Assembly (NCBI GenBank): GCA_030697705.1
Contig: JAUYPE010000006.1
Location: forward strand, 4,686-68,685
Direction of reading: 5' to 3'
DNA length: 64,000 nucleotides
Source: a bacterium
GTDB taxonomy: Bacteria; Patescibacteriota; Minisyncoccia; Sungbacterales; HO2-52-23
A program made the position numbers and the translations under genes. The notes below the pieces were generated by a model that saw nothing but the letters and a program-made list of their open reading frames with translations, was not told where the DNA came from and ran no database searches. Each line of letters opens with the position of its first letter. Positions within the stretch are counted from its first letter, which is position 1. This document shows positions 2,587 to 57,233 of this stretch, one piece after another.

Positions 2587-5500
2587 ATGACCGATAAGGA
2601 GAAAAAAGCGACGATTCCGGAGCGGGAGGAGGCCATTTTGAAGTTCTGGGAGGAGCGGGAGATCTTCCGGAAGTCGGTGGAAAAGAACAAGAAAGGAAAA
2701 GAATTTGTTTTTTACGAAGGGCCGCCAACGGCAAACGGTCTGCCCGGCATCCATCATGTGGAGGCGCGGGCGTTTAAGGATATTATTCCGCGTTATAAAA
2801 CGATGCGGGGATTTTTCGTCCCGCGCCGTGCCGGATGGGATACGCACGGCCTGCCGGTTGAGCTACAGGTGGAAAAAGAGCTTGGCTTAAAAAATAAGCA
2901 GGATATTGAAAAATACGGTATTGGTGCGTTTAACGCCAAGGCGAAAGAATCCGTCTGGCGCTATAAAGAGGAGTGGGAAAAACTGACGAAGCGGATGGGA
3001 TTCTGGATTGATATGGACAATCCCTACATCACGTACAGCGCTCCCTATATGGAGAGTTCGTGGTGGATTATCCAGCAATTCTGGAAAAAGGGTTTACTGG
3101 AGGAGGACTTTAAGGTCGTTCCATGGTGCACGCGATGCGCTACCGGCTTGTCATCTCATGAATTGGCGCAGGGGTATAAAAAAACGACTGACACGGCCGT
3201 GTATGTGAAGTTTAAACTGGAACCCAATCAAAAGATCGGTGATTTTATGACGGATGACAAGACCTATATTCTGGCGTGGACGACAACGCCATGGACATTG
3301 CCGGGGAATGTGGGGTTAGCGGTGAATCCGAAGCTTGAGTATGTAAAGATAAAATGGGCGAGATCCTTCTATAAGACCCAAGAAGGACAGGAATTGCCGA
3401 TGCATCTAGACGAATATTATGTCATCGCAAAAGATATCTTTCTAAAAGTTGCAGAAAAACATCCAGGCGAAACAAATCGCTATGGCTGGCGGGGTCAGAC
3501 ATATGATATTATTGAAACTTTTACTGGGGAAAAGATTGTAGGGCAAAGATACAAGTCACTCTTCCATGTTAGCGAACTCAAAACAGAAACGGCATACAGG
3601 ATATATTCAGCTGATTTTGTTTCAGCGAGTGAGGGTACCGGTGTGGTGCATACTGCGGTGATGTACGGAGAGGATGACTATGTGTTGGGAAAAAAAGTGG
3701 GATTGCCAACATTTCATACTGTTGACGAGGCGGGAAGATTTGTTGGTTCACTTACAGACGGACTTGCGGGATTGTATGTAAAAGATTCCAGAACGGAAGA
3801 AAAAATTCTTGAAATTTTAAAAAGTAAAAACCTTCTCTTTGCGCAGGAAAAGTACGAGCACGACTATCCGTTCTGCTGGAGGTGCGGGACGCCATTGCTC
3901 TACTACGCGCGGAAGGGATGGTGGGTGAAGACGACGAAGGTGAAGAAAGAACTTATCGCGAATAACGAAACAATCAACTGGGTGCCGGAGCATATTAAGC
4001 ACGGGCGGTTTGGCGAATTTTTGCGTGAGGTGAGGGATTGGGCATTTTCGCGCGAGCGGTATTGGGGAACACCCTTGCCTATTTGGAAGTGCCAAAGTGA
4101 AAAATGCGATCATGTTGAGGTTATAGGTTCGCGCACTGAAATGGCCGAACACGGGAAAAAACTTTATAACGAATATTTCGTCATGCGCCATGGCGAGGCG
4201 ATGACGAATAGCAGAGGGATTATCTCATCGGAGGAGAATAAATACCCGCTCACCGCGAAAGGTCGCGCGCAAGTACAACGCGCGGCGGCACGGCTGAAAA
4301 AACAAGGCATTGATATTGTTATCGCCTCGCCGATTTTGCGTACGCGCGAGAGTGCGAAGATAATCGCAAAGATATTGGCTCTACCCGATGAGAATGTGCA
4401 TTTTGATGCGCGATTAAAGGAGATTGCGCTAGGGTCGTATGAAGGCAAAAAGGAGGGAGAGTATCATCGCGCGTTTAAAAATATACGGGAAAAACTTACC
4501 ACCGCGCTCCCAGGCGGCGAATCGCTTGACGAGGTGCGCCGGAGAATGATGGCGGCGCTTATTGATGCGGAGAAAAAGCATGGGGGTAAAAAAATCCTTT
4601 TCGTGAGCCACGACTATCCGTTGTGGATGCTCATGCGCGGAGCGGAGGGGTACTCGGGCGAGGAGGCGATTGCTCTTCGCGAAAATAACGGAAAAGAAAT
4701 GATGCATTGCGGCTATGCCGAGGTCTACGGGCTCACGCATGCCGACCTGCCGCGTGACGAAAAAGGCGAGGTGAATCTTCACCGACCGTATGTTGATGAT
4801 TTTGTTTTTCCGTGCGTAACATGCGGTGGCATGATGCGGCGTACGCCCGAAGTTGCCGATGGGTGGTTTGACTCGGGTGTTATGCCGTTTGCGCAGAGCC
4901 ACTATCCGTTTAGCTCTGTCCGTCATCCTGAACCCTTCGGACACCCTCAGGATAAACTCCGTGAAGGATCCCGTAAGTTAACGGAATTCCTCGCCCCGAC
5001 GATCGGGACTCGGAATGACGAGGGTGGAGGTTTGGCTTTCCCCGCCGACTATATTTGTGAGGGAGTTGACCAGACGCGCGGATGGTTCTATACGCTTCTT
5101 GCTGTCGCAACACTCCTTGGAAAAAAAGCACCATACAAAAATGTCATTTCGCTCGGGCATGTGCTGGATAAAAACGGACAGAAGATGTCCAAGTCAAAAG
5201 GCAACACGGTAAACGCGTTGGAGATTATTGAGAAGTACGGCATTGATGCCCTGCGCTGGTATTTCTACACGATCAATCCGCCCGGCGAGCCCAAAAAGTT
5301 TGACGAACGGGATGTGGCGAATAGATATCGTGGATTCATTCAGACGCTCTGGAACAGTTTTGTTTTGTTTGACACCTATGTCACTTCGGTTCCCGCAAGA
5401 ATTCCATCAACCATAAAACTTTCTATGCTTGATCGCTGGATTCTGGCGCGGATGGATGAGGTGACAGCGGAGGTGACGCGTGCGCTGGATAGATACGATA

Positions 5501-6282
5501 TTATGGCTGCGGGGCGGGCGCTGGAGGAGTTTTGTATCAACGACTTCTCGCAGTGGTTCTTGCGCCGCTCGCGCCGTCGGTTCCAGCATCCGGCGAGTAA
5601 AAATGAGTATGCTGGCGTTACCGTGGTTACAGGCGCCGTGCTGATGCGCTTAGCTTTTTTAACAGCACCGTTCACGCCGTTTTTGAGCGAGATGATTTTT
5701 CAGGAGTTAAAGAAAAAAATGAAACTTAAAGAGGAAAGCGTGCATCTGGCGGCGTGGCCCGCAGCGCCGAAGAAAATAAGTGCGGCGGACAAAAAACTGA
5801 TATTAGATATGCAGGTAGTTCGTGCGATCTGCTCTGAGGCTCTAAAATTGCGTGCTGAGGTGGGGATGAAGGTGCGCCAACCGTTGAGCAAATTACAAAT
5901 TACGAATGCTGAATTACAAAAAAAGACGGAGCTTCTGGCATTAATTCAAGATGAGGTAAACATAAAAAATATTTCATTTGGGAAAGAAATGTTTCTTGAT
6001 ACGGTACTGACGGTAGAACTTCGTGAAGAGGGGATGGTGCGCGAAGTCATCCGCAATATCCAAGAGATGCGGCGCGATCTGGGACTCACGCCGAGCCACA
6101 AAATCCGCGCGCAATTTTCCGCTACATCAAATGCGCTGGATGAAGTGCTTGGCCGATGGCAAAAAACAATCATGCGCGATGCGGGCGTAAAGGCGTTTAT
6201 TATTGCAGGCAAACGGGTGTTTGCTGCCGAGCGGGAATTAAAATTTGACGATGCGATGCTGTGGTTAGGGATTAAGAAGTAA
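2587..6282 (+). CDS. ileS: isoleucyl-tRNA synthetase (type 2 / eukaryote-like) carrying an inserted histidine-phosphatase domain
   Basis: HIGH-type motif PPTANGLPGIHHV; GWDTHGLPVE; KMSKSKGN; WFDSGVMPF; 1231 aa, unusually long because of an insertion of about 190 aa with RHGE...SHD phosphoglycerate-mutase-family motifs between the ...VIGS and LHRPYVDD segments. Confidence 0.9.
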   Translation: MTDKEKKATIPEREEAILKFWEEREIFRKSVEKNKKGKEFVFYEGPPTANGLPGIHHVEARAFKDIIPRYKTMRGFFVPRRAGWDTHGLPVELQVEKELGLKNKQDIEKYGIGAFNAKAKESVWRYKEEWEKLTKRMGFWIDMDNPYITYSAPYMESSWWIIQQFWKKGLLEEDFKVVPWCTRCATGLSSHELAQGYKKTTDTAVYVKFKLEPNQKIGDFMTDDKTYILAWTTTPWTLPGNVGLAVNPKLEYVKIKWARSFYKTQEGQELPMHLDEYYVIAKDIFLKVAEKHPGETNRYGWRGQTYDIIETFTGEKIVGQRYKSLFHVSELKTETAYRIYSADFVSASEGTGVVHTAVMYGEDDYVLGKKVGLPTFHTVDEAGRFVGSLTDGLAGLYVKDSRTEEKILEILKSKNLLFAQEKYEHDYPFCWRCGTPLLYYARKGWWVKTTKVKKELIANNETINWVPEHIKHGRFGEFLREVRDWAFSRERYWGTPLPIWKCQSEKCDHVEVIGSRTEMAEHGKKLYNEYFVMRHGEAMTNSRGIISSEENKYPLTAKGRAQVQRAAARLKKQGIDIVIASPILRTRESAKIIAKILALPDENVHFDARLKEIALGSYEGKKEGEYHRAFKNIREKLTTALPGGESLDEVRRRMMAALIDAEKKHGGKKILFVSHDYPLWMLMRGAEGYSGEEAIALRENNGKEMMHCGYAEVYGLTHADLPRDEKGEVNLHRPYVDDFVFPCVTCGGMMRRTPEVADGWFDSGVMPFAQSHYPFSSVRHPEPFGHPQDKLREGSRKLTEFLAPTIGTRNDEGGGLAFPADYICEGVDQTRGWFYTLLAVATLLGKKAPYKNVISLGHVLDKNGQKMSKSKGNTVNALEIIEKYGIDALRWYFYTINPPGEPKKFDERDVANRYRGFIQTLWNSFVLFDTYVTSVPARIPSTIKLSMLDRWILARMDEVTAEVTRALDRYDIMAAGRALEEFCINDFSQWFLRRSRRRFQHPASKNEYAGVTVVTGAVLMRLAFLTAPFTPFLSEMIFQELKKKMKLKEESVHLAAWPAAPKKISAADKKLILDMQVVRAICSEALKLRAEVGMKVRQPLSKLQITNAELQKKTELLALIQDEVNIKNISFGKEMFLDTVLTVELREEGMVREVIRNIQEMRRDLGLTPSHKIRAQFSATSNALDEVLGRWQKTIMRDAGVKAFIIAGKRVFAAERELKFDDAMLWLGIKK
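4150..4770 (+). other. in-frame histidine phosphatase (PGAM/CobC-like) domain inserted in ileS
   Basis: YFVMRHGEAMTNSRG...PLTAKG...ASPILRTRESA...LPGGESLDEV...ILFVSHDYPL: RHG catalytic motif, second His in SHD, GGES region; matches the histidine phosphatase superfamily layout. Confidence 0.7.
4918..5022. repeat. palindromic MITE-like repeat, copy A (in-frame inside ileS)
   Basis: gtccgtcatcctgaac...gaaggatcccgtaagttaacggaattcctcg...ctcggaatgacg; shares termini and core with copies at 10559, 18995, 48428, 51198, 54079, 57143; 105 nt = 35 codons, translated as SVRHPEPFGHPQDKLREGSRKLTEFLAPTIGTRNDEG between the conserved HYPF and FPADYI segments. Confidence 0.7.
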
Positions 6283-6288
6283 GAACTC

Positions 6289-6813
6289 ATGCACACCACC
6301 GAAGGTATTATTCTGTCCAAAACGCCGAGCGGGGAGGCGGATGAGCTGGTCACGATGTACACGTGTGCGTACGGCAAGGTGCGTGCGCTCGTGCAGGGCG
6401 TAAAAAAAGAAGAGGCGAAACTGCGCGGGCATCTTGAGGTTTTGTCTCTCTGCACTATAGGTTTGGTGGCGGGTAAAAACGGCGAACGGCTCGTCTACGC
6501 GGAGCTGAAAAACTTCTGGTCGCGCATTCGTACCCATGCAGGCAAGCATTATGCGGCGCATTATATGGTACGGCGCATGGACAATGCGTGCTTTCCCGGC
6601 GAGCGCGACGAGCGGATGTGGACGCTTCTTACGGCGGCATTCATTATTCTTGAGGAGCAGGATTTTACCACACGCGAATTGCAGGATTTTTTGCTCGGTT
6701 TTGAAAAACAGCTTGTGGCGCATTTGGGCTACGGTGACGCGGGAATCGGCTCCACACTCGGTCCGCTCGTGGCGCAGGGAACATTGGCGCGGTATACTGG
6801 AAGCGGTGCTTAG
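6289..6813 (+). CDS. recO: DNA repair protein RecO (short form)
   Basis: N-terminal OB-fold pattern EGIILSKTPSGEADELVTMYTCAYGKVRALVQGVKK typical of RecO; 174 aa (shorter than canonical). Confidence 0.55.
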   Translation: MHTTEGIILSKTPSGEADELVTMYTCAYGKVRALVQGVKKEEAKLRGHLEVLSLCTIGLVAGKNGERLVYAELKNFWSRIRTHAGKHYAAHYMVRRMDNACFPGERDERMWTLLTAAFIILEEQDFTTRELQDFLLGFEKQLVAHLGYGDAGIGSTLGPLVAQGTLARYTGSGA

Positions 6814-10558: not shown

Positions 10559-10646
10559 GTCCGTCATCCAGAGCGTAGCGAAGGATCCCGTACGATCTCA
10601 GTATACTGAATACTAGCGGGATTCCTCGTTATACTCGGAATGACGG
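10559..10646. repeat. palindromic MITE-like repeat, copy D (intergenic, full length)
   Basis: gtccgtcatccagagcgtagcgaaggatcccgtacgatctcagtatactgaatactagcgggattcctcgttatactcggaatgacgg; terminal inverted repeats ccgtcatcc / ggaatgacgg; central palindrome tcagtatactga. Confidence 0.75.
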
Positions 10647-16948: not shown

Positions 16949-19600
16949 ATGTCAATCATGCGCTACAATCCCAAAAAAATTGAAGCAAAGTGGCAGAAAA
17001 AATGGCTCGCGGAAAAAATCTACGAGCCGGATTTGACTTCTCAACGAAAAAATTCTCGACAAGATCAAACCGTAAAATTGCGCAAACCGTTTTATAATCT
17101 CATGATGTTTCCGTATCCGTCCGCGGAAGGACTCCACATCGGCGGGATGCGGACGTTTACTGGTGTGGATATATACGGGCGCATTAAACGGATGCAGGGA
17201 CATGACGTTTTTGAGCCCATCGGGCTTGATGCATTCGGTATTCACTCGGAAAACTATGCGCTCAAAACGGGGCGGCACCCGATGAAGCAAGCGGTTATTT
17301 TGAAAAAAAACTTCTACCGCCAGCTTGCCGCAATGGGCAACGGTTTTGCGTGGGATGAACGATTAGAAACGAACGATCCGGACTACTACCGCTGGACGCA
17401 GTGGATCTTTGTGCAGATGTTTCGGCACGGTCTTGCGTACCGCAAAAAACAGGCGGTGAACTGGTGTCCTTCGTGCAAAACGGTGCTTGCCGACGAGCAG
17501 GTCATCACGGGGCGGTGTGAACGGTGCGATAGTGAAGTAATGAAAAAAGAACTGGAACAGTGGTTTTTCCGCACGACAAAGTATGCCGAGCGCCTCCTCA
17601 ATAATCTTGAAAAAATTGACTGGTCGGAACGCGTGAAGATTGCGCAGAGGAATTGGATTGGGAAGTCGGATGGCGCAATAATTCGCTTTCCCCTTACCGA
17701 GATTCCCAGTCAGCCCGACGGTAAACATTTTGTTGATGTTTTTACCACGCGGCCCGATACGCTCTTCGGCGCGACCTTTCTTGTGATCTCTCCGGAGCTG
17801 GCGAAATTCTGGATGGATATCGGGTGGCGGGTGGGCGATGATGTGCGCGACTATGTAAAAACCACGCTTGCCGAGCGGGCGATACAAGCACGAGACGCAG
17901 AACCGAAAAAAACGGGCGTGTTCTCCGGCATCTATGGTATTAACCCCGCAAACCAAGAAAAAATTCCCGTCTGGATTGCGGACTATGTGCTCGCCGGATA
18001 CGGTACCGGTGCCATTATGGCGGTACCTGCACACGACGAACGCGATTTTGAGTTTGCAAAAAAGTATAATCTGCCGATAAAAATCGTTGTCTGTCCGCAC
18101 TATCCGGAGAAGACATGTCCGATTTTGGACGAGGCATACACAGGCGAGGGACACTTGGTTGGTTCAAGTGTATTTGATGGTATGACTTCAATTGCCGCGC
18201 GGGCGACTATTGTCAAACATGTCGGCGGGAAGATAACTATTCAATATCGGCTCCGCGATTGGCTGATCTCTCGTCAGCGCTATTGGGGACCGCCGATTCC
18301 GATGATCTATTGCGAGGCATGCGCACGCAATAAAAAAGGTGAGCGAAACGACACGCCCGGGTGGTATACGGTGCCGGAAAAAAATCTTCCGGTGAAACTG
18401 CCATTTATCAAAAACTTTAGACCTACTGGAACGGATCGGTCGCCACTCGCAAGCGTCGCTTCTTTTTATAAAGTTCGATGTCCGGGGTGTAAAAAAGAGG
18501 CGCGGCGCGAAACGGACGTCTCGGATACCTTTTTGGATTCCGCATGGTATTTTTTGCGCTATCCGAATGTAAAGAATAAAAAAGCCGCATGGGATGCGGC
18601 GATAACCAAAAAAATACTTCCCGTTGATTCATACATCGGCGGGGCGGAGCACTCGGTTTTACATCTCATGTACGCGCGCTTTTTGACGATGGCGTTACAT
18701 GATATTGGTGTTTTGAATTTTTCCGCCAAAGGCGGATCCGCCTCCGGCGGAGAAGAACCGTTTCCAAAATTTCGGGCGCACGGATTGATTACCAAAGACG
18801 GTGCGAAGATGTCCAAGTCAAAGGGCAATGTCGTGAGTCCCGACGAGTACATCAAAGCATACGGCGCCGATGCGGTGCGGATGTACTTGGCGTTTTTGGC
18901 TCCCTTTGAGCAGGACGGAGATTTCCGCGATACGGGCATCCGTGGTATGACGCGGTTTCTTGAGCGCGTTTGGCGGATGATGCAAAACTTCTCCAGCCGT
19001 CATCCTGAAGGAGCGAAGCGACTGAAGGATCCCGCAAAGTTACGGGATGCTTCGCCTACGGCTCAGCATGACATACAGCAGGTGCTCCATCGGACGATAA
19101 AGAAAGTTACGGAAGATATAGAGCACCTGCACTACAACACCGCCATTTCCGCGCTTATGGTTTTGCTCAATAGTTTTGAAAAACATCCGGAGGAGGTCGC
19201 GCAAGAATACGGAGGGGTATTTTTAAAGCTTCTGGCGCCATTTGCCCCGCATGTAGCGGAAGAGTTGTGGCAGCAGATGAATGCTCATACTAATGCTAAA
19301 TTAAAAATGCCAAATGATAAAAAAAAGCATTCAGCATTCAGCATTCAGTATTCAGCATTTCGTTCTGTTCATCGCGAGCCGTGGCCGAAATATAATCCAC
19401 GTTTGATCATGGAACAAACGTTTGAACTTGTCGTGCAGGTCAACGGCAAGGTCCGCGGCCGCGTATCTGTTTCTAGAGGAATAAGCGAGGCGGATGTGGT
19501 CGCCACAGCTCGCGCATTGGAGTCGGTAAAACCTTATTTAGCTGCACTGCCAAAAAAAACAATCTTTGTTCCCGATAAACTTGTAAACTTTGTCGTCTAG
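16949..19600 (+). CDS. leuS: leucyl-tRNA synthetase
   Basis: MMFPYPSAEGLHIGGMRTFTGVDIYGR...GLDAFGIHSE...KMSKSKGN; 883 aa; contains MITE copy B and a heptamer SSR in-frame. Confidence 0.92.
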   Translation: MSIMRYNPKKIEAKWQKKWLAEKIYEPDLTSQRKNSRQDQTVKLRKPFYNLMMFPYPSAEGLHIGGMRTFTGVDIYGRIKRMQGHDVFEPIGLDAFGIHSENYALKTGRHPMKQAVILKKNFYRQLAAMGNGFAWDERLETNDPDYYRWTQWIFVQMFRHGLAYRKKQAVNWCPSCKTVLADEQVITGRCERCDSEVMKKELEQWFFRTTKYAERLLNNLEKIDWSERVKIAQRNWIGKSDGAIIRFPLTEIPSQPDGKHFVDVFTTRPDTLFGATFLVISPELAKFWMDIGWRVGDDVRDYVKTTLAERAIQARDAEPKKTGVFSGIYGINPANQEKIPVWIADYVLAGYGTGAIMAVPAHDERDFEFAKKYNLPIKIVVCPHYPEKTCPILDEAYTGEGHLVGSSVFDGMTSIAARATIVKHVGGKITIQYRLRDWLISRQRYWGPPIPMIYCEACARNKKGERNDTPGWYTVPEKNLPVKLPFIKNFRPTGTDRSPLASVASFYKVRCPGCKKEARRETDVSDTFLDSAWYFLRYPNVKNKKAAWDAAITKKILPVDSYIGGAEHSVLHLMYARFLTMALHDIGVLNFSAKGGSASGGEEPFPKFRAHGLITKDGAKMSKSKGNVVSPDEYIKAYGADAVRMYLAFLAPFEQDGDFRDTGIRGMTRFLERVWRMMQNFSSRHPEGAKRLKDPAKLRDASPTAQHDIQQVLHRTIKKVTEDIEHLHYNTAISALMVLLNSFEKHPEEVAQEYGGVFLKLLAPFAPHVAEELWQQMNAHTNAKLKMPNDKKKHSAFSIQYSAFRSVHREPWPKYNPRLIMEQTFELVVQVNGKVRGRVSVSRGISEADVVATARALESVKPYLAALPKKTIFVPDKLVNFVV
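18995..19073. repeat. palindromic MITE-like repeat, copy B (in-frame inside leuS, short form)
   Basis: agccgtcatcctgaaggagcgaagcgactgaaggatcccgcaaagttacgggatgcttcgcctacggctcagcatgac; translated SSRHPEGAKRLKDPAKLRDASPTAQH in the variable linker before the conserved HRTIKKVTEDIE segment; boundaries approximate. Confidence 0.55.
19327..19360. repeat. tandem heptanucleotide repeat (gcattca x about 4.7) inside leuS
   Basis: gcattcagcattcagcattcagtattcagcattt preceded by an A8 run; encodes HSAFSIQYSAF within an expanded loop near the LeuRS C-terminus. Confidence 0.7.
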
Positions 19601-22036: not shown

Positions 22037-23143
22037 ATGAAGCTTTACGAGTACGAAGGAAAGGAATTGTTCAAGAAATATAATATTCCCGTGCCGAAGG
22101 GAGTGGTTGTTTCGCGTGGGGAGGAGGTGCCGGATGGGGACGAGCCCGTGTTTCTCAAAGCGCAGGTAAAGTCGGGAGACAGGAAAAAAGAAGGGGGGAT
22201 TCTAGAGGCGAAAAACCACGCCGCGGCGATGAAGGGTGCGTGGGAACTTTTGGATAAGAAAATAAAAGGGGAGCAGGTGGAAAAAGTATTGGTAGAGGAG
22301 CGCGTGGATGCGGCGAAAGAATACTATGTAAGTTTTAGTTACGACTCGGACTATCGTGCGCCGGTGCTTTCGGTCTCAACCAAGGGCGGATCGGGGATTG
22401 CTAAAGCGCATATCGTTCCCGTTGATATGCTCTGGGGCGTGCCGAATTTTTTTCTGCGCGATGCCCTCACCGCGGCGGGATTTCCCCAAGAAGATATCGC
22501 GGGCGTGAGCCGCGTGGCGCAGAGCTCGTACTCCCTTTTCATCAAAGAATACGCGCTTCTTGCCGAGATGAATCCGTTATTCAAAACGAAAGATGGCGCG
22601 TTTGTTGCCGGAGACGCAAAAATAATTCTGGATGACGAGAAATATAATCCCGGCGAGCGGAGATTTTTGGACATGGATGGAGATATCGCGGTATTGGCAT
22701 CAGGGGGCGGCGCGTCGCTTTTGAATATGGATGCGCTCTTGCGATGCGGCGGCCGGCCGGCAAATTATACCGAATACTCGGGAAATCCCAAGAGCGATGT
22801 GGTCAAAGAATTGACGAAACGCGTGTTAAGTCGTCCGGGGCTCAAAGGATGCTGGGTGGTGGGCGGGACGGCGAACTTTACCGATATTTATGAAACGCTA
22901 AAAGGATTTTTGGATGGTTTGCGGGGAGTTACACCGAAGCCGAATTACCCGATCGTTATCCGTCGTGACGGGCCGCGTCGTGCCGAGGCGTTTGCCATGC
23001 TCAAAGAAGTTAGTGAAAAAGAAGGGTATGATTTTCATCTATTCGGATCCGATACGGCAATGGCGGATACGGCAAAGATTATGGTACGGGAGGCGTATGG
23101 GAAAAAGAAGAGATCGCCGCGCGGTTCTCAAAAAACAGCATGA
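22037..23143 (+). CDS. SucC-like ATP-grasp subunit (succinyl-CoA synthetase beta / citryl-CoA synthetase / ACL B-type subunit)
   Basis: MKLYEYEGKELFKKYNIPVPKG matches the SucC N-terminus MNLHEYQAKQLF..YG.P.P; ATP-grasp then CoA-ligase domain; 368 aa. Confidence 0.75.
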   Translation: MKLYEYEGKELFKKYNIPVPKGVVVSRGEEVPDGDEPVFLKAQVKSGDRKKEGGILEAKNHAAAMKGAWELLDKKIKGEQVEKVLVEERVDAAKEYYVSFSYDSDYRAPVLSVSTKGGSGIAKAHIVPVDMLWGVPNFFLRDALTAAGFPQEDIAGVSRVAQSSYSLFIKEYALLAEMNPLFKTKDGAFVAGDAKIILDDEKYNPGERRFLDMDGDIAVLASGGGASLLNMDALLRCGGRPANYTEYSGNPKSDVVKELTKRVLSRPGLKGCWVVGGTANFTDIYETLKGFLDGLRGVTPKPNYPIVIRRDGPRRAEAFAMLKEVSEKEGYDFHLFGSDTAMADTAKIMVREAYGKKKRSPRGSQKTA

Positions 23144-41100: not shown

Positions 41101-41116
41101 GGATTATGTTCGGCTT

Positions 41117-41185
41117 GTCATTGCGAGGAGCCGAAGGCGACGCGGCAATTACAAAAAGATTGCTTCGGCTTCACCTCGCAATGAC
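41117..41185. repeat. 69-bp perfect-ended palindrome between parA and parB
   Basis: gtcattgcgagg agccgaag gcgacgcggcaattacaaaaagattg cttcggct tcacctcgcaatgac; termini resemble the MITE family termini gtcattccgag / ctcggaatgac. Confidence 0.6.
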
Positions 41186-41196
41186 AGTATCAAATT

Positions 41197-47941: not shown

Positions 47942-50080
47942 TCACAAAAGTGCCGATTCGTTTCTCGCCTCCTCAACCGCCTCGCCGAGCATTTGGTAAT
48001 AAAGATTCAAGCCGATTTTATTGATGGCGCCCGATTGCTTGCGACCAAGAATATTGCCCGCGCCGCGGATTTCCAAATCGCGCAGGGCGAGCTGATATCC
48101 TGCGCCAAGTTCGGCGTATTCTTGCAGTGCCTCCAGCCGTTCTGTCGCTTTTTGGGTAAGATGTTTGGGACGATACAAAAAATACGCATACGCCTGATCC
48201 GTCCCACGGCCAATCCTACCGCGGAGCTGGTGCGCCTGCGCGAGTCCGAGCCGCGTCGCGTCGTCTACGATGAGCGTATTGGCAGATGAGATATCCAAAC
48301 CGTTTTCAATAATAGTGGTGGCAAGAAGAATATCTATTTTTCCCTCGCGAAACTCATTCATCGTGCGGATGATCGCGTCTTCCCCCATCCGGCCGTGCAT
48401 GATCGCGATGCGGGGTTTAACCCTTATTCCGTCATCCAGAGTCCCGACTCGTCGGGACGAAGGATCCCGTAAATTAACGGGATTCCTCTCCGCCCCAGGC
48501 GGCTCGGAATGACGGACAAAACGGGTAAATCCCAGCTTAGCTTTTTTTGCAAGCATGCGCTCAAGTTTCTGCTTCACCGCGCCGATCGTTTCTATCCTAT
48601 TATGGAGAAAATAAACCTGCCCGCCGCGTTCGCGTTCGCGAAGAATCGCCTCGGCAATGAGCTTGGCGGAATAAGGGAGGACGAGCGTCTGGATGGCGAG
48701 GCGGCCGGGCGGCGGGGTATCCAGTGTGGAAATGTCGCGAAGCCGCGCAAGGGTAAGTTGCATAGTGCGGGGGATGGGCGTTGCCGAGAGTGAGAGTATA
48801 TCAACATCGGCGCAAATTTCTTTTAAGCGTTCTTTTTGTTTAACACCGAAGCGCTGTTCTTCGTCCAGAATTACCATACCGAGATTCTTGAACGCCACAT
48901 CGCGTGAGAGGAGCCGGTGTGTGCCGATGATGCAATCAATTTTTCCATTCTGCACCTCGTCAAGCATGCGTGTTTGTTCTGCGGGAGAGGCGAGCCGGGA
49001 AATCATGCGGACGGAGACAGGGAGAGCGGCGAATCGCTCGCGGAACGTCCGTTCGTGCTGTGCGGCGAGGACGGTGGTGGGAGCCAAAACGGCGACCTGT
49101 GCGCCGGAGGCGATAATGCGCATCGCCGCGCGGATGGCAACCTCCGTTTTACCGAATCCCACATCGCCGCAGAGGACGCGATCCATGGGTGCATCACGTG
49201 CCATGTCGGCGAGGATTTCGTTTTCCGCTCGCGACTGGTCTTCTGTTTCTTGATAAGGGAAACTTTCGCGGAGTCGTGCTTCCATGTCGTTGTCCCCCGT
49301 GCGGGGAGGGCGCCGTGCGAGGGAACGCTTGGCATAGAGTGCAAGAAGTGCCCGCGCAAGTTTTTCTGTTTCTTCCTTTACTTTTCGTTTGGTATTCATC
49401 CACAGCGAACCGCCCAAACGATGTACGCGGGGTAACTCAAACCCCACATAGGGCGAGAGCCGCTCGTACTGCACGCGCGGTACAAATAGACGATCCGGCT
49501 CCGCTCCCTCGCGCGGCGGCGCGTATTCTATGATGAAAAAGTCATCCGTCGGTATGTCCGTTCCCAAAATGTTTTTTTGCCGCGCGTCTGTCCCCATGCC
49601 GTGAAAGATACCAATGCCGTGGTCAATATGGACGACGAAACTTCCCGGAGCGAGGTTCTCCATCGTTGTTTTTTGCGAGATGCGCGGTTTTGCGTGCGGC
49701 AGTTCTTCCGTCGGCGGGCGCTGGACAAGCGATGCGATCGTATTTCCCGAAAACTCAATCAAATAAGGTACAGCCGTATTAATCGGCCAGATCTCTATGA
49801 CCCCGCCGCGTACGGCGAAAAGCCCGCGACTCCGCACCGTTTGCACGCGCTCATAGCTAAAACCGGATAGCCGCCGTGCAAGTTCCGCCGGCTTCATGAC
49901 CAAGTCCTGCTCAACAAAAAATGCATGCTCCCGCCACCACGGATTCGCCATCCGCGCCTTCTTAATTGATTCCTGATTTTCCGCGTACCACAAAACATCC
50001 CTCTCCAAATTTTGGGGGGTTACCGAGACGATGAGGAGTTCTTGTGGTGGTGCCGCGCCCTGCGGCGCTTTGCCAGCCAT
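47942..50080 (-). CDS. mfd: transcription-repair coupling factor Mfd, short form lacking the UvrB-homology N-terminal domains
   Basis: Walker A CGDVGFGKTEVAIRAA, motif II DEEQRFGV, C-terminal TRCF domain; 712 aa versus about 1150 canonical; contains MITE copy C in-frame. Confidence 0.8.
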   Translation of the reverse strand: MAGKAPQGAAPPQELLIVSVTPQNLERDVLWYAENQESIKKARMANPWWREHAFFVEQDLVMKPAELARRLSGFSYERVQTVRSRGLFAVRGGVIEIWPINTAVPYLIEFSGNTIASLVQRPPTEELPHAKPRISQKTTMENLAPGSFVVHIDHGIGIFHGMGTDARQKNILGTDIPTDDFFIIEYAPPREGAEPDRLFVPRVQYERLSPYVGFELPRVHRLGGSLWMNTKRKVKEETEKLARALLALYAKRSLARRPPRTGDNDMEARLRESFPYQETEDQSRAENEILADMARDAPMDRVLCGDVGFGKTEVAIRAAMRIIASGAQVAVLAPTTVLAAQHERTFRERFAALPVSVRMISRLASPAEQTRMLDEVQNGKIDCIIGTHRLLSRDVAFKNLGMVILDEEQRFGVKQKERLKEICADVDILSLSATPIPRTMQLTLARLRDISTLDTPPPGRLAIQTLVLPYSAKLIAEAILRERERGGQVYFLHNRIETIGAVKQKLERMLAKKAKLGFTRFVRHSEPPGAERNPVNLRDPSSRRVGTLDDGIRVKPRIAIMHGRMGEDAIIRTMNEFREGKIDILLATTIIENGLDISSANTLIVDDATRLGLAQAHQLRGRIGRGTDQAYAYFLYRPKHLTQKATERLEALQEYAELGAGYQLALRDLEIRGAGNILGRKQSGAINKIGLNLYYQMLGEAVEEARNESALL
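48428..48517. repeat. palindromic MITE-like repeat, copy C (in-frame inside mfd, read on minus strand)
   Basis: ttccgtcatccagagtcccgactcgtcgggacgaaggatcccgtaaattaacgggattcctctccgccccaggcggctcggaatgacgga; 90 nt = 30 codons; encodes VRHSEPPGAERNPVNLRDPSSRRVGTLDDG immediately before the conserved RIAIMHGRM segment. Confidence 0.65.
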
Positions 50081-51197: not shown

Positions 51198-51282
51198 TCC
51201 GTCATTCTGAACGCAGTGAAGAATCCCGTATGATTTCAGTATGTTGAACATTAACGGGATTCCTCGCTTCGCTCGGAATGAC
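51198..51282. repeat. palindromic MITE-like repeat, copy E (intergenic pth/lepB)
   Basis: tccgtcattctgaacgcagtgaagaatcccgtatgatttcagtatgttgaacattaacgggattcctcgcttcgctcggaatga. Confidence 0.75.
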
Positions 51283-51363
51283 AAGAGGGCGAAAAATATA
51301 GTATTTGTAGGATTTTGAGGGTTATTATTTGCCAATAGAGCTTAGGTCAACTATACTCTACGC

Positions 51364-54059: not shown

Positions 54060-54078
54060 AGTAGGAGGTGTAATCAGA

Positions 54079-54188
54079 GTCATTCCGAGCGTGAGCGACT
54101 GCCAGGAGGCGTCCCGTGAGGGGGGAATTCCGTTAATATTCAGCATACTGAAATTGTACGGGATCCTTCGCTACGCTCTGGATGACGG
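54079..54188. repeat. palindromic MITE-like repeat, copy F (intergenic, opposite orientation)
   Basis: gtcattccgagcgtgagcgactgccaggaggcgtcccgtgaggggggaattccgttaatattcagcatactgaaattgtacgggatccttcgctacgctctggatgacgg. Confidence 0.75.
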
Positions 54189-57120: not shown

Positions 57121-57142
57121 TTTTAGGACTTACGCATTTTAT

Positions 57143-57233
57143 CCGTCATTCAAGGTGTAGCGAAGGATTTTTCGTACGATTTCAGTATACTGAAAATAGT
57201 AACGGGATTCCTCGCGGGTGCTCGGAATGACGG
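57143..57233. repeat. palindromic MITE-like repeat, copy G (intergenic upstream of ftsA)
   Basis: ccgtcattcaaggtgtagcgaaggatttttcgtacgatttcagtatactgaaaatagtaacgggattcctcgcgggtgctcggaatgacgg. Confidence 0.75.

Follow-up and report, generated by a model that had tools for sequence, protein, structure and literature searches.

An 87-nucleotide palindromic repeat in frame within mfd of a Sungbacteria-like bacterium, resembling an inverted dimer of CGTC-tagged REP units

The mfd gene on a stretch of 64,000 nucleotides (64 kb, hereafter the window) of contig JAUYPE010000006.1, from a Sungbacteria-like bacterium of the candidate phyla radiation (CPR, or Patescibacteria), carries an 87-nucleotide (nt) palindromic element within its open reading frame (ORF). 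With a probability of roughly 0.8, this segment is a resident non-autonomous palindromic repeat, built as an inverted dimer of units resembling CGTC-tagged repetitive extragenic palindromic (REP) sequences, which was inserted in an ancestor and is translated through. A sequence-only reading of this DNA had pointed to an in-frame repeat in mfd with the peptide now recovered, and the uninterrupted ORF of 712 amino acids (aa) does contain ...FTRFVRHSEPPGAERNPVNLRDPSSRRVGTLDDGIRVKPRIAIMHGRMGE...; the extent then given, 90 nt at 48428-48517, shrinks to 87 nt (29 codons) at 48429-48515, bounded by CCGTCAT and ATGACGG. The gene and the parts of the element are as follows.

47942..50080, minus strand: mfd, 712 aa (NCBI protein MDZ4299383.1), with UvrB_inter, RID, DEAD and Helicase_C domains; intact ORF under purifying selection.
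48429..48515, minus strand: the 87-nt palindrome, composed of two CGTC-tagged REP-like units in an inverted dimer; Mfd residues 523-551, RHSEPPGAERNPVNLRDPSSRRVGTLDDG.
48479..48515, minus strand: 5' arm of the element (mRNA strand), with CGTC tag, stem ATTCC/GGAAT and tail CCC.
48469..48478, minus strand: short apical spacer of the element, GTTAATTTAC on the mRNA strand.
48429..48468, minus strand: 3' arm of the element (mRNA strand), with tail, stem GGAT/ATCC, hairpin GTCCCGAC-GA-GTCGGGAC and terminal ...CTCTGGATGACGG.

The palindrome is repeated in the window, and the repetition is not due to chance. The terminal 12-mer occurs six times with at most one mismatch, against 0.48 occurrences expected and with none of 100 shuffles reaching six; a repeat search connected seven loci, and an nhmmer profile made from these gave exactly seven matches in the 64 kb (E-values of 1e-13 to 2e-22) and nothing else. 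Weak 11-mer matches at 22626, 28106 and 31375, all inside genes, were set aside as chance. Three of the seven copies are genic, their hosts ileS, leuS and mfd being identified by Pfam and PDB searches. Besides the mfd copy, this family (family A) includes the following members.

4920..5021, plus strand: 102-nt copy in frame in ileS, residues about 779-812, RHPEPFGHPQDKLREGSRKLTEFLAPTIGTRND.
10561..10646, plus strand: 86-nt intergenic copy with a long apical loop, between a class II aminoacyl-tRNA synthetase gene and an M16 peptidase gene.
18997..19074, plus strand: a more degenerate 78-nt copy, read in frame in leuS, residues about 684-708, RHPEGAKRLKDPAKLRDASPTAQHD.
51199..51284, plus strand: 86-nt intergenic copy between the divergently transcribed pth and lepB.
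54077..54188, minus strand: 112-nt intergenic copy, the sole one inverted on the plus strand.
57142..57233, plus strand: 92-nt intergenic copy between a HEPN-domain gene and ftsA.

The full-length copies fold at -30 to -52 kcal/mol, and the whole mfd element is predicted to form a four-way junction at -48.9 kcal/mol (z = -5.3) as RNA; the corresponding DNA fold reaches -25.4 kcal/mol (z = -4.7). In the 5' arm of the mfd copy, a hairpin CCGCC-TGG-GGCGG stands in place of the loop, and its spacer is devoid of the stop-rich TCAGTATACTGA loop found in the intergenic copies, the spacer between halves being 6-10 nt in genic copies and about 25 nt in intergenic ones. Though the fold resembles a cloverleaf, ARAGORN detected no tRNA-like gene at the mfd element, and no Rfam family matched the element, either in the window at gathering thresholds or in five element-bearing loci at E <= 1. 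Each copy scores far higher with nhmmer in one orientation than in the other, so that its orientation is well defined. The mfd copy reached 54.9 bits on the plus strand against 22.7 on the minus strand, on which the gene lies; relative to its gene it is thus opposite to the ileS and leuS copies, as had been recognized from the letters. By the same bit scores, six of the seven family A copies share the plus-strand orientation, whatever the direction of the gene.

The segment is a true insertion in Mfd. The insert is carried by the query and by its sister P0002, which is 87% identical to it in the codon alignment, and is absent from the other 118 in the set of the 120 closest Mfd homologues (Sungbacteria-like CPR); orthologues of about 60% identity run through the site, for instance as MLRSL-AKKPRIGVIHG. 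In structure comparison, residues 510-554 stand opposite two residues of Mycobacterium smegmatis Mfd. The Pfam Helicase_C match covers only profile positions 40-108, downstream of the insert, at 68.1 bits, and in-silico deletion of residues 515-553 restores a contiguous match over positions 8-108 at 77.7 bits, indicating that the insert splits the fold of RecA-like lobe 2 and does not precede this lobe, where the sequence-only reading had placed it. An AlphaFold2 model (60-sequence alignment, mean predicted local distance difference test score, pLDDT, of 79.5) sets the insert between the helix at residues 496-515 and the strand at 558-561, with residues 522-552 below a pLDDT of 50 and free of secondary structure. 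Based on this model, the insert is probably a disordered surface loop of 29 residues.

As to the host protein itself, this Mfd is a short form: Pfam gave no match to the C-terminal TRCF domain, the N-terminal UvrB-homology module is for the most part missing, and the homologues measure 633-746 aa. In the loop equivalent to residues 510-555, many of the homologues P0009-P0120 bear other insertions of 10-50 residues, which look unrelated and often include an xYDR/xDDR motif. This motif was considered as a decayed REP terminus and found unsupported, the one DNA locus concerned (L164) showing a weak fold and no GTCAT/ATGAC palindrome.

The reading frame of the gene continues through the element. 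The genic copies of 102, 78 and 87 nt in ileS, leuS and mfd are all multiples of three and stop-free in the frame used, and 20 of the 24 frames of the intergenic copies (86, 86, 112 and 92 nt) contain stops. This difference would be expected if the genic copies are translated and unnecessary if they are excised. Removal as an intein, as an intron or otherwise at the RNA level was rejected, given an element of 87 nt with no intein or intron features and genic copies that are selectively multiples of three and stop-free. The translated segments begin with RHPE, RHPE and RHSE and end with ND, HD and DD in ileS, leuS and mfd, respectively, which represents a single shared frame of the element.

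The common start of these peptides had been ascribed to palindromic termini, and this explanation is correct but incomplete. Both strands of the element start with CGT CAT (T/C)C., coding for R-H-(S/P), and R-H-(S/P)-E is indeed obtained from either strand through the near-palindromic CGTCAT termini. The complementarity is inexact, the termini of the mfd copy, CGTCATTCCGAG and CGTCATCCAGAG, agreeing at 10 of 12 positions, so that serine stands at the start in one orientation and proline in the other. Palindromy alone is insufficient, since the use of one and the same frame out of three is also required. In the frame beginning CCG TCA, the terminal ...A ATG ACG G puts TGA in frame; the near-palindromic ends make this hold in either orientation, so that one frame is closed in every case by the TGA within the terminal ATGAC. 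Two open frames are left, RH...ND and VI...MT, and the one used, RH...ND, is the most hydrophilic; the three genic copies have a grand average of hydropathy of -1.33, -1.64 and -1.53 in it, compared with +0.12 when mfd is read in the other open frame. Within the Mfd and IleRS homologue sets, the RH frame is used in nine of ten distinct in-frame dimers (11 occurrences), and it is used as well in both inserts of a metagenomic ArgRS. The further proposal that the elements stay open in both orientations applies to the family and not to each copy: when checked frame by frame, the mfd copy contains a stop in all three frames of its unused orientation.

Comparison with the sister genome indicates which property of the element has been kept. 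The element is 93% identical between the sisters both at all positions and at third-codon positions, against 82% and 63%, respectively, for the rest of mfd, and its third-position value is matched by only 0.6% of 29-codon windows. A total of four amino-acid differences were found in the element, all of them non-synonymous, with no synonymous change in the 28 codons wholly inside it. Four of the five nucleotide changes fall within the 13 hairpin-loop positions (binomial estimate, about 0.002), and the loop residues flanking the insert are highly diverged. What is conserved is the nucleic-acid stems and not the peptide. This conservation could result from selection on structure, or from gene conversion within the palindrome or between copies.

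Selection on structure leads to an unlikely but arguable alternative, in which the element is kept for a nucleic-acid structure that serves the host and the peptide is a by-product; the structure might be a four-way hairpin of the mRNA that tunes translation or decay of mfd, ileS and leuS, or a DNA cruciform or protein-binding site. The conservation of synonymous sites and the confinement of changes to loops both agree with such a role, as do the strength of the predicted RNA fold, the conversion of arm mismatches into G-U pairs on the mfd mRNA strand, and the RNA-level roles proposed in the literature for transcribed REPs (PMC3733652). Against it, the insert is missing from nearly all close homologues and the copies differ between the sisters, so that any host role must be dispensable; in ileS and leuS, transcription runs through the element in the opposite orientation; and gene conversion within or between palindromic copies also predicts conserved stems without any function.

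Exaptation of the 29-residue peptide into a functional module on the surface of Mfd, such as a new interaction loop of the translocase, is very improbable, even though the in-frame insert has been retained in two genomes at 82% nucleotide identity and modification of repair proteins by REP insertions was speculated upon by Di Nocera et al. (PMC3733652). The excess of non-synonymous over synonymous changes is the opposite of what purifying selection on a protein would give, the predicted coil is disordered, and in other hosts the peptide read from this DNA family differs according to phase. An exhaustive phmmer search of 1.84 billion representative proteins gave no homologue of the peptide, with a single irrelevant low-complexity match, and no candidate emerged when the 46-aa insert region was used in a word-index search of proteins.

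A mis-assembled repeat or a pseudogenized mfd can be dismissed almost entirely: repeats can cause assembly errors in metagenome-assembled genomes, but the 712-aa ORF is intact, its helicase motifs can all be aligned with solved Mfd structures, two contigs of independent sources (NCBI and Logan) encode the identical protein, an independent groundwater assembly from other samples has two contigs with the orthologous insert in frame, and mfd is under strong purifying selection, as judged from 87% amino-acid against 64% third-codon identity with the sister.

The course of events favored here, a resident repeat inserted and then translated through, would be as follows. The element, presumably arriving by transposition, would have entered a permissive loop in the second RecA-like lobe of Mfd in the common ancestor with the sister genome, and would be translated as a hydrophilic surface loop, close to neutral for Mfd, which would stay functional. 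The in-frame state would reflect a filter of selection and not design, in that only stop-free insertions of 3n length would persist, and only where a needed gene has a tolerant loop; with one frame closed, the more polar of the other two, RH...(N/D)D, is the one seen. After insertion, the four-way DNA or RNA hairpin would have been kept, and the peptide not.

As for the class of the element, each half consists of CGTC, then ATTCCGAG or ATCCWGAG, a short loop, CGAGGAAT or GAAGGAT, and CCC. CGTC-tagged REPs were described by Di Nocera, De Gregorio and Rocco (2013, BMC Genomics 14:522; PMC3733652) as having an unpaired CGTC, TGTC or CCTC tag, a stem of 8-9 bp starting with two A-T/T-A pairs, a loop of 4-5 nt and an unpaired tail of 3 nt, as forming mostly inverted dimers, and as lacking a dedicated transposase, their mobilizing activity being stated to be unknown. 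Over the 14 arms of the seven copies in the window, the tag is CGTC in 11, TGTC in two and AGTC in one, and it is unpaired in single-arm folds. All arms begin CGTC-AT... and close ...AT-CCC, with predicted stems of 5 bp, a 2x2 mismatch of the GA/AG type and 2 bp. The loops of most intergenic-copy arms are 4-5 nt long (CGAAG, CGCAG or CGTAG), and in the mfd copy the loop positions are filled by hairpins of 13 and 17-18 nt, making it a decorated variant. A CCC tail, unpaired in arm folds, terminates nearly all arms (GGATCCC or GAATCCC), the published consensus being CCA. All seven copies are inverted dimers of the HH type with tags outermost, a layout that for the published dimers was deduced from the published REP-coded peptides.

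The family thus agrees in large part with CGTC REPs, in the end tag, a putative stem that starts with AT, the CGAAG-type loop of most intergenic-copy arms, the 3-nt tail and the inverted dimers, as well as in a mostly intergenic distribution with some members in ORFs of repair genes and tRNA synthetases, and no linked transposase was seen in the loci covered. The published hosts include uvrA/B/C/D, recBCD, polA, dnaE2 and tRNA synthetases, one of them an isoleucyl-tRNA synthetase, and the published REP-coded peptides fall into three frame types, RHPREGGDP..., VIPAKAGI...AGMT and SFPRKRES...RFRGND (PMC3733652), which is a further likeness to the present family. Differences are also evident: CGTC REPs were published from Proteobacteria, Chlorobi, Bacteroidetes, Spirochaetes and Thermotogae and not from CPR; mfd is not on their host list; the tail here is CCC instead of CCA and the stem is interrupted instead of a clean 8-9 bp; and GC-rich hairpins replace the 4-5-nt loops in the genic copies.

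Rickettsia palindromic elements (RPEs) provide a parallel in behavior, in that a palindrome lies in frame in unrelated genes and is translated, as is expected here for ileS, leuS and mfd. The RPEs, RPE-1 to RPE-8/10, were reportedly introduced by Ogata et al. (2000, Science 290:347, and 2002, Genome Research). They are palindromic, measure about 100-150 bp, lie in frame within many housekeeping genes and are translated into extra surface segments compatible with the protein fold. They differ from the present element in that their host is an obligate intracellular alphaproteobacterium, and that RPE-1 is longer and unrelated in sequence. RPEs are summarized in a review (PMC10969869), and the only sequence link between them and the element consists in the published statement that RPE-6 is CGTC-1 and RPE-4 is CGTC-4 (PMC3733652). 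REPINs (Bertels and Rainey 2011, PMC3116915) likewise join two inverted REPs across a short spacer into a single long hairpin and are non-autonomous and long-persisting, but they carry a GTAG tag and depend on a single-copy gene for RAYT, a Y1 HUH transposase, flanked by REPs; the tag here is CGTC, and no RAYT was seen in the 64 kb of genome covered.

The earlier name for the element, a copy of a MITE (miniature inverted-repeat transposable element), is apt as far as a small non-autonomous palindromic repeat is meant. In-frame MITEs such as ERIC, QMITE1 and Chunjie (PMC10969869) are also small with inverted termini and give translational fusions without loss of the ORF, but they are derived from insertion sequences (IS) or lineage-specific and typically show target-site duplications, none of which is evident for the element. 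A classical MITE, that is, a deletion derivative of an IS moved in trans by a DDE transposase, is improbable in the extreme: it would fit that the repeats are small, have inverted termini, exist in several copies and fill some sites in one sister only, but neither a target-site duplication nor a direct repeat was found at the seven copies or in the filled-versus-empty comparison of the ileS site, the termini consist of a CGTC tag and an AT-initiated REP stem whose architecture spans many phyla and not the range of a lineage-specific IS, and no transposase recurs beside the copies in about 160 loci. With no target-site duplication visible and no parent IS found, a classical MITE is the poorer class for the element, which fits better among REPIN- or RPE-like inverted dimers of CGTC-tagged REP units.

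Several points weigh against the interpretation as a translated REP-like dimer. Translation of the insert and activity of Mfd are deduced from the sequence. Under the nearest-neighbor model, single arms fold weakly (-1 to -3.5 kcal/mol) with z-scores that are not significant, so that the REP-monomer hairpin is an architectural feature without energetic support, and the arms of the mfd copy hold hairpins of 13-18 nt where the family definition has loops of 4-5 nt. The lack of target-site duplications also leaves the insertion events themselves without a footprint. No transposase or other mobilizing gene was identified in the 64 kb seen, which was not fully annotated, and the genes adjoining elements in about 160 loci include no recurrent family, only generic ones. 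Finally, the conservation test compares one genome pair, a limit that applies equally to the structural role considered above.

Turnover of such elements is seen between the sister genomes. It involves, besides family A, the related family B, which follows the pattern CGTC/TGTC-ATTGCGAGG...GAAGCAATC... and has one member in the window.

41115..41187, no strand assigned: family B element, TGTCATTGCGAGG...CCTCGCAATGACAG, between parA and parB.

The sister mfd contains an extra in-frame family B element in its RID loop (RHCEES...ARND; L118 10501-10607), from which the window mfd is free, and a family B copy between the genes for S21 and HIT is likewise present only in the sister (L118, about 6315-6365), the site in the window being empty. 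The intergenic family A copy between the YqeY and S21 genes occurs in both sisters in opposite orientations (54077-54188 in the window, L118 5854-5990), which suggests that the palindrome was flipped in situ or was re-inserted at the same spot. The ileS copy is an insertion as well: at its site, about 40 residues stand opposite seven in Thermus thermophilus IleRS, and a 76%-identical orthologue is cleanly empty; the leuS linker has a similar length in T. thermophilus LeuRS, so that the leuS copy is not a clear net insertion.

The Mfd and IleRS loops are recurrent landing or retention sites, which could be due to structural permissiveness or to target preference. The RID loop is independently occupied in a 54%-identical Mfd (P0103), and near IleRS residue 779 different RHPE...QND dimers are found in P0124, P0136 and P0164, closer orthologues being empty.

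Beyond this lineage, an inner-stem pattern searched in one genome per species gave more than 117 loci against about 28 estimated by chance, most of them with both GTCATYCTGAG termini, in Clostridia, Verrucomicrobia (Udaeobacter), Acidobacteria, Nitrospirota, Chloroflexi and several CPR groups. The distribution of the family thus goes far beyond the five phyla listed in 2013. A metagenome scan with a fixed-length short-loop pattern gave nothing, and one with a relaxed pattern gave 43 loci. In-frame members were found in ArgRS (two copies in one gene; L120, about 11.6-13.5 kb), in Obg GTPase of Udaeobacter (L010), in a U32 peptidase of Lachnospiraceae (L055), in KsgA/RsmA (L108) and in a GT4 glycosyltransferase (L156). 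An arm variant ...CCTGARCCCTTCG...CTCAGGRTAAACTCCGYGAAGGATCCCG is common to the ileS copy (4933-4962), Udaeobacter, Acidobacteria and unassigned metagenome contigs (L011, L016, L017, L121 and L144), which indicates conservation of whole repeat modules across phyla.

Other features of the copies and of the two synthetase genes were recorded. In four of the seven copies (4920, 10561, 48515 on the minus strand, and 51199), TTYTGTC stands directly 5' of one CGTC tag; copies with this flank have a G-rich run past the opposite end, and the interior of the mfd copy is flipped relative to such flanks. The flank could belong to the target, as a motif, or to the element, as an asymmetric extension. The IleRS (2587-6282, plus strand) contains a complete His_Phos_1 domain (PF00300, E 5e-35) at residues 531-697 (about 4177-4677), placed between segments of the catalytic core, where about 204 residues stand opposite six in T. 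thermophilus IleRS; this architecture recurs in most of the 120 closest homologues (Sungbacteria/Parcubacteria). In leuS, a heptanucleotide tandem repeat GCATTCA of about four units (about 19277-19365, residues about 777-805) is in frame as HSAFSIQYSAF within a stretch that T. thermophilus LeuRS lacks, thereby representing a second in-frame repeat, unrelated to the palindromic element.

In-frame behavior of this kind is already known for RPEs and intragenic CGTC REPs. What appears undescribed in the searchable literature is the occurrence in a CPR, Sungbacteria-like lineage, mfd as a host, a genic fraction of three in seven, the decorated short-loop variant, and the conservation of stems over peptide; a literature search returned no paper linking REPs to Patescibacteria, and a full-text search for the terminal sequence strings returned unrelated primers only. 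A more speculative and rather doubtful proposal is that CPR contain a coding-compatible subfamily of CGTC-REP dimers, marked by additional GC hairpins and by an apical loop that is short and free of stops, which recurrently entered the same loops of genes for translation and repair in one frame and was then held by selection on the four-way structure. If this is true, the subfamily would be an intragenic structured element with a role at the level of the host, in control of translation or mRNA fate or as a site of programmed inversion, and not inert selfish DNA.

The finding extends the under-studied translated repeats of the REP/RPE type to the tiny, gene-dense genomes of CPR bacteria, where they lie inside essential genes, and adds mfd to the list of insert-bearing repair genes. 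The filled, empty and inverted sister sites, the recurrently occupied loops of IleRS and Mfd, the frame bias and the retained stems together offer a natural data set on the upkeep of such elements. The inserts inflate and confuse alignments and annotations of CPR proteins, and should be recognized as repeat-derived.

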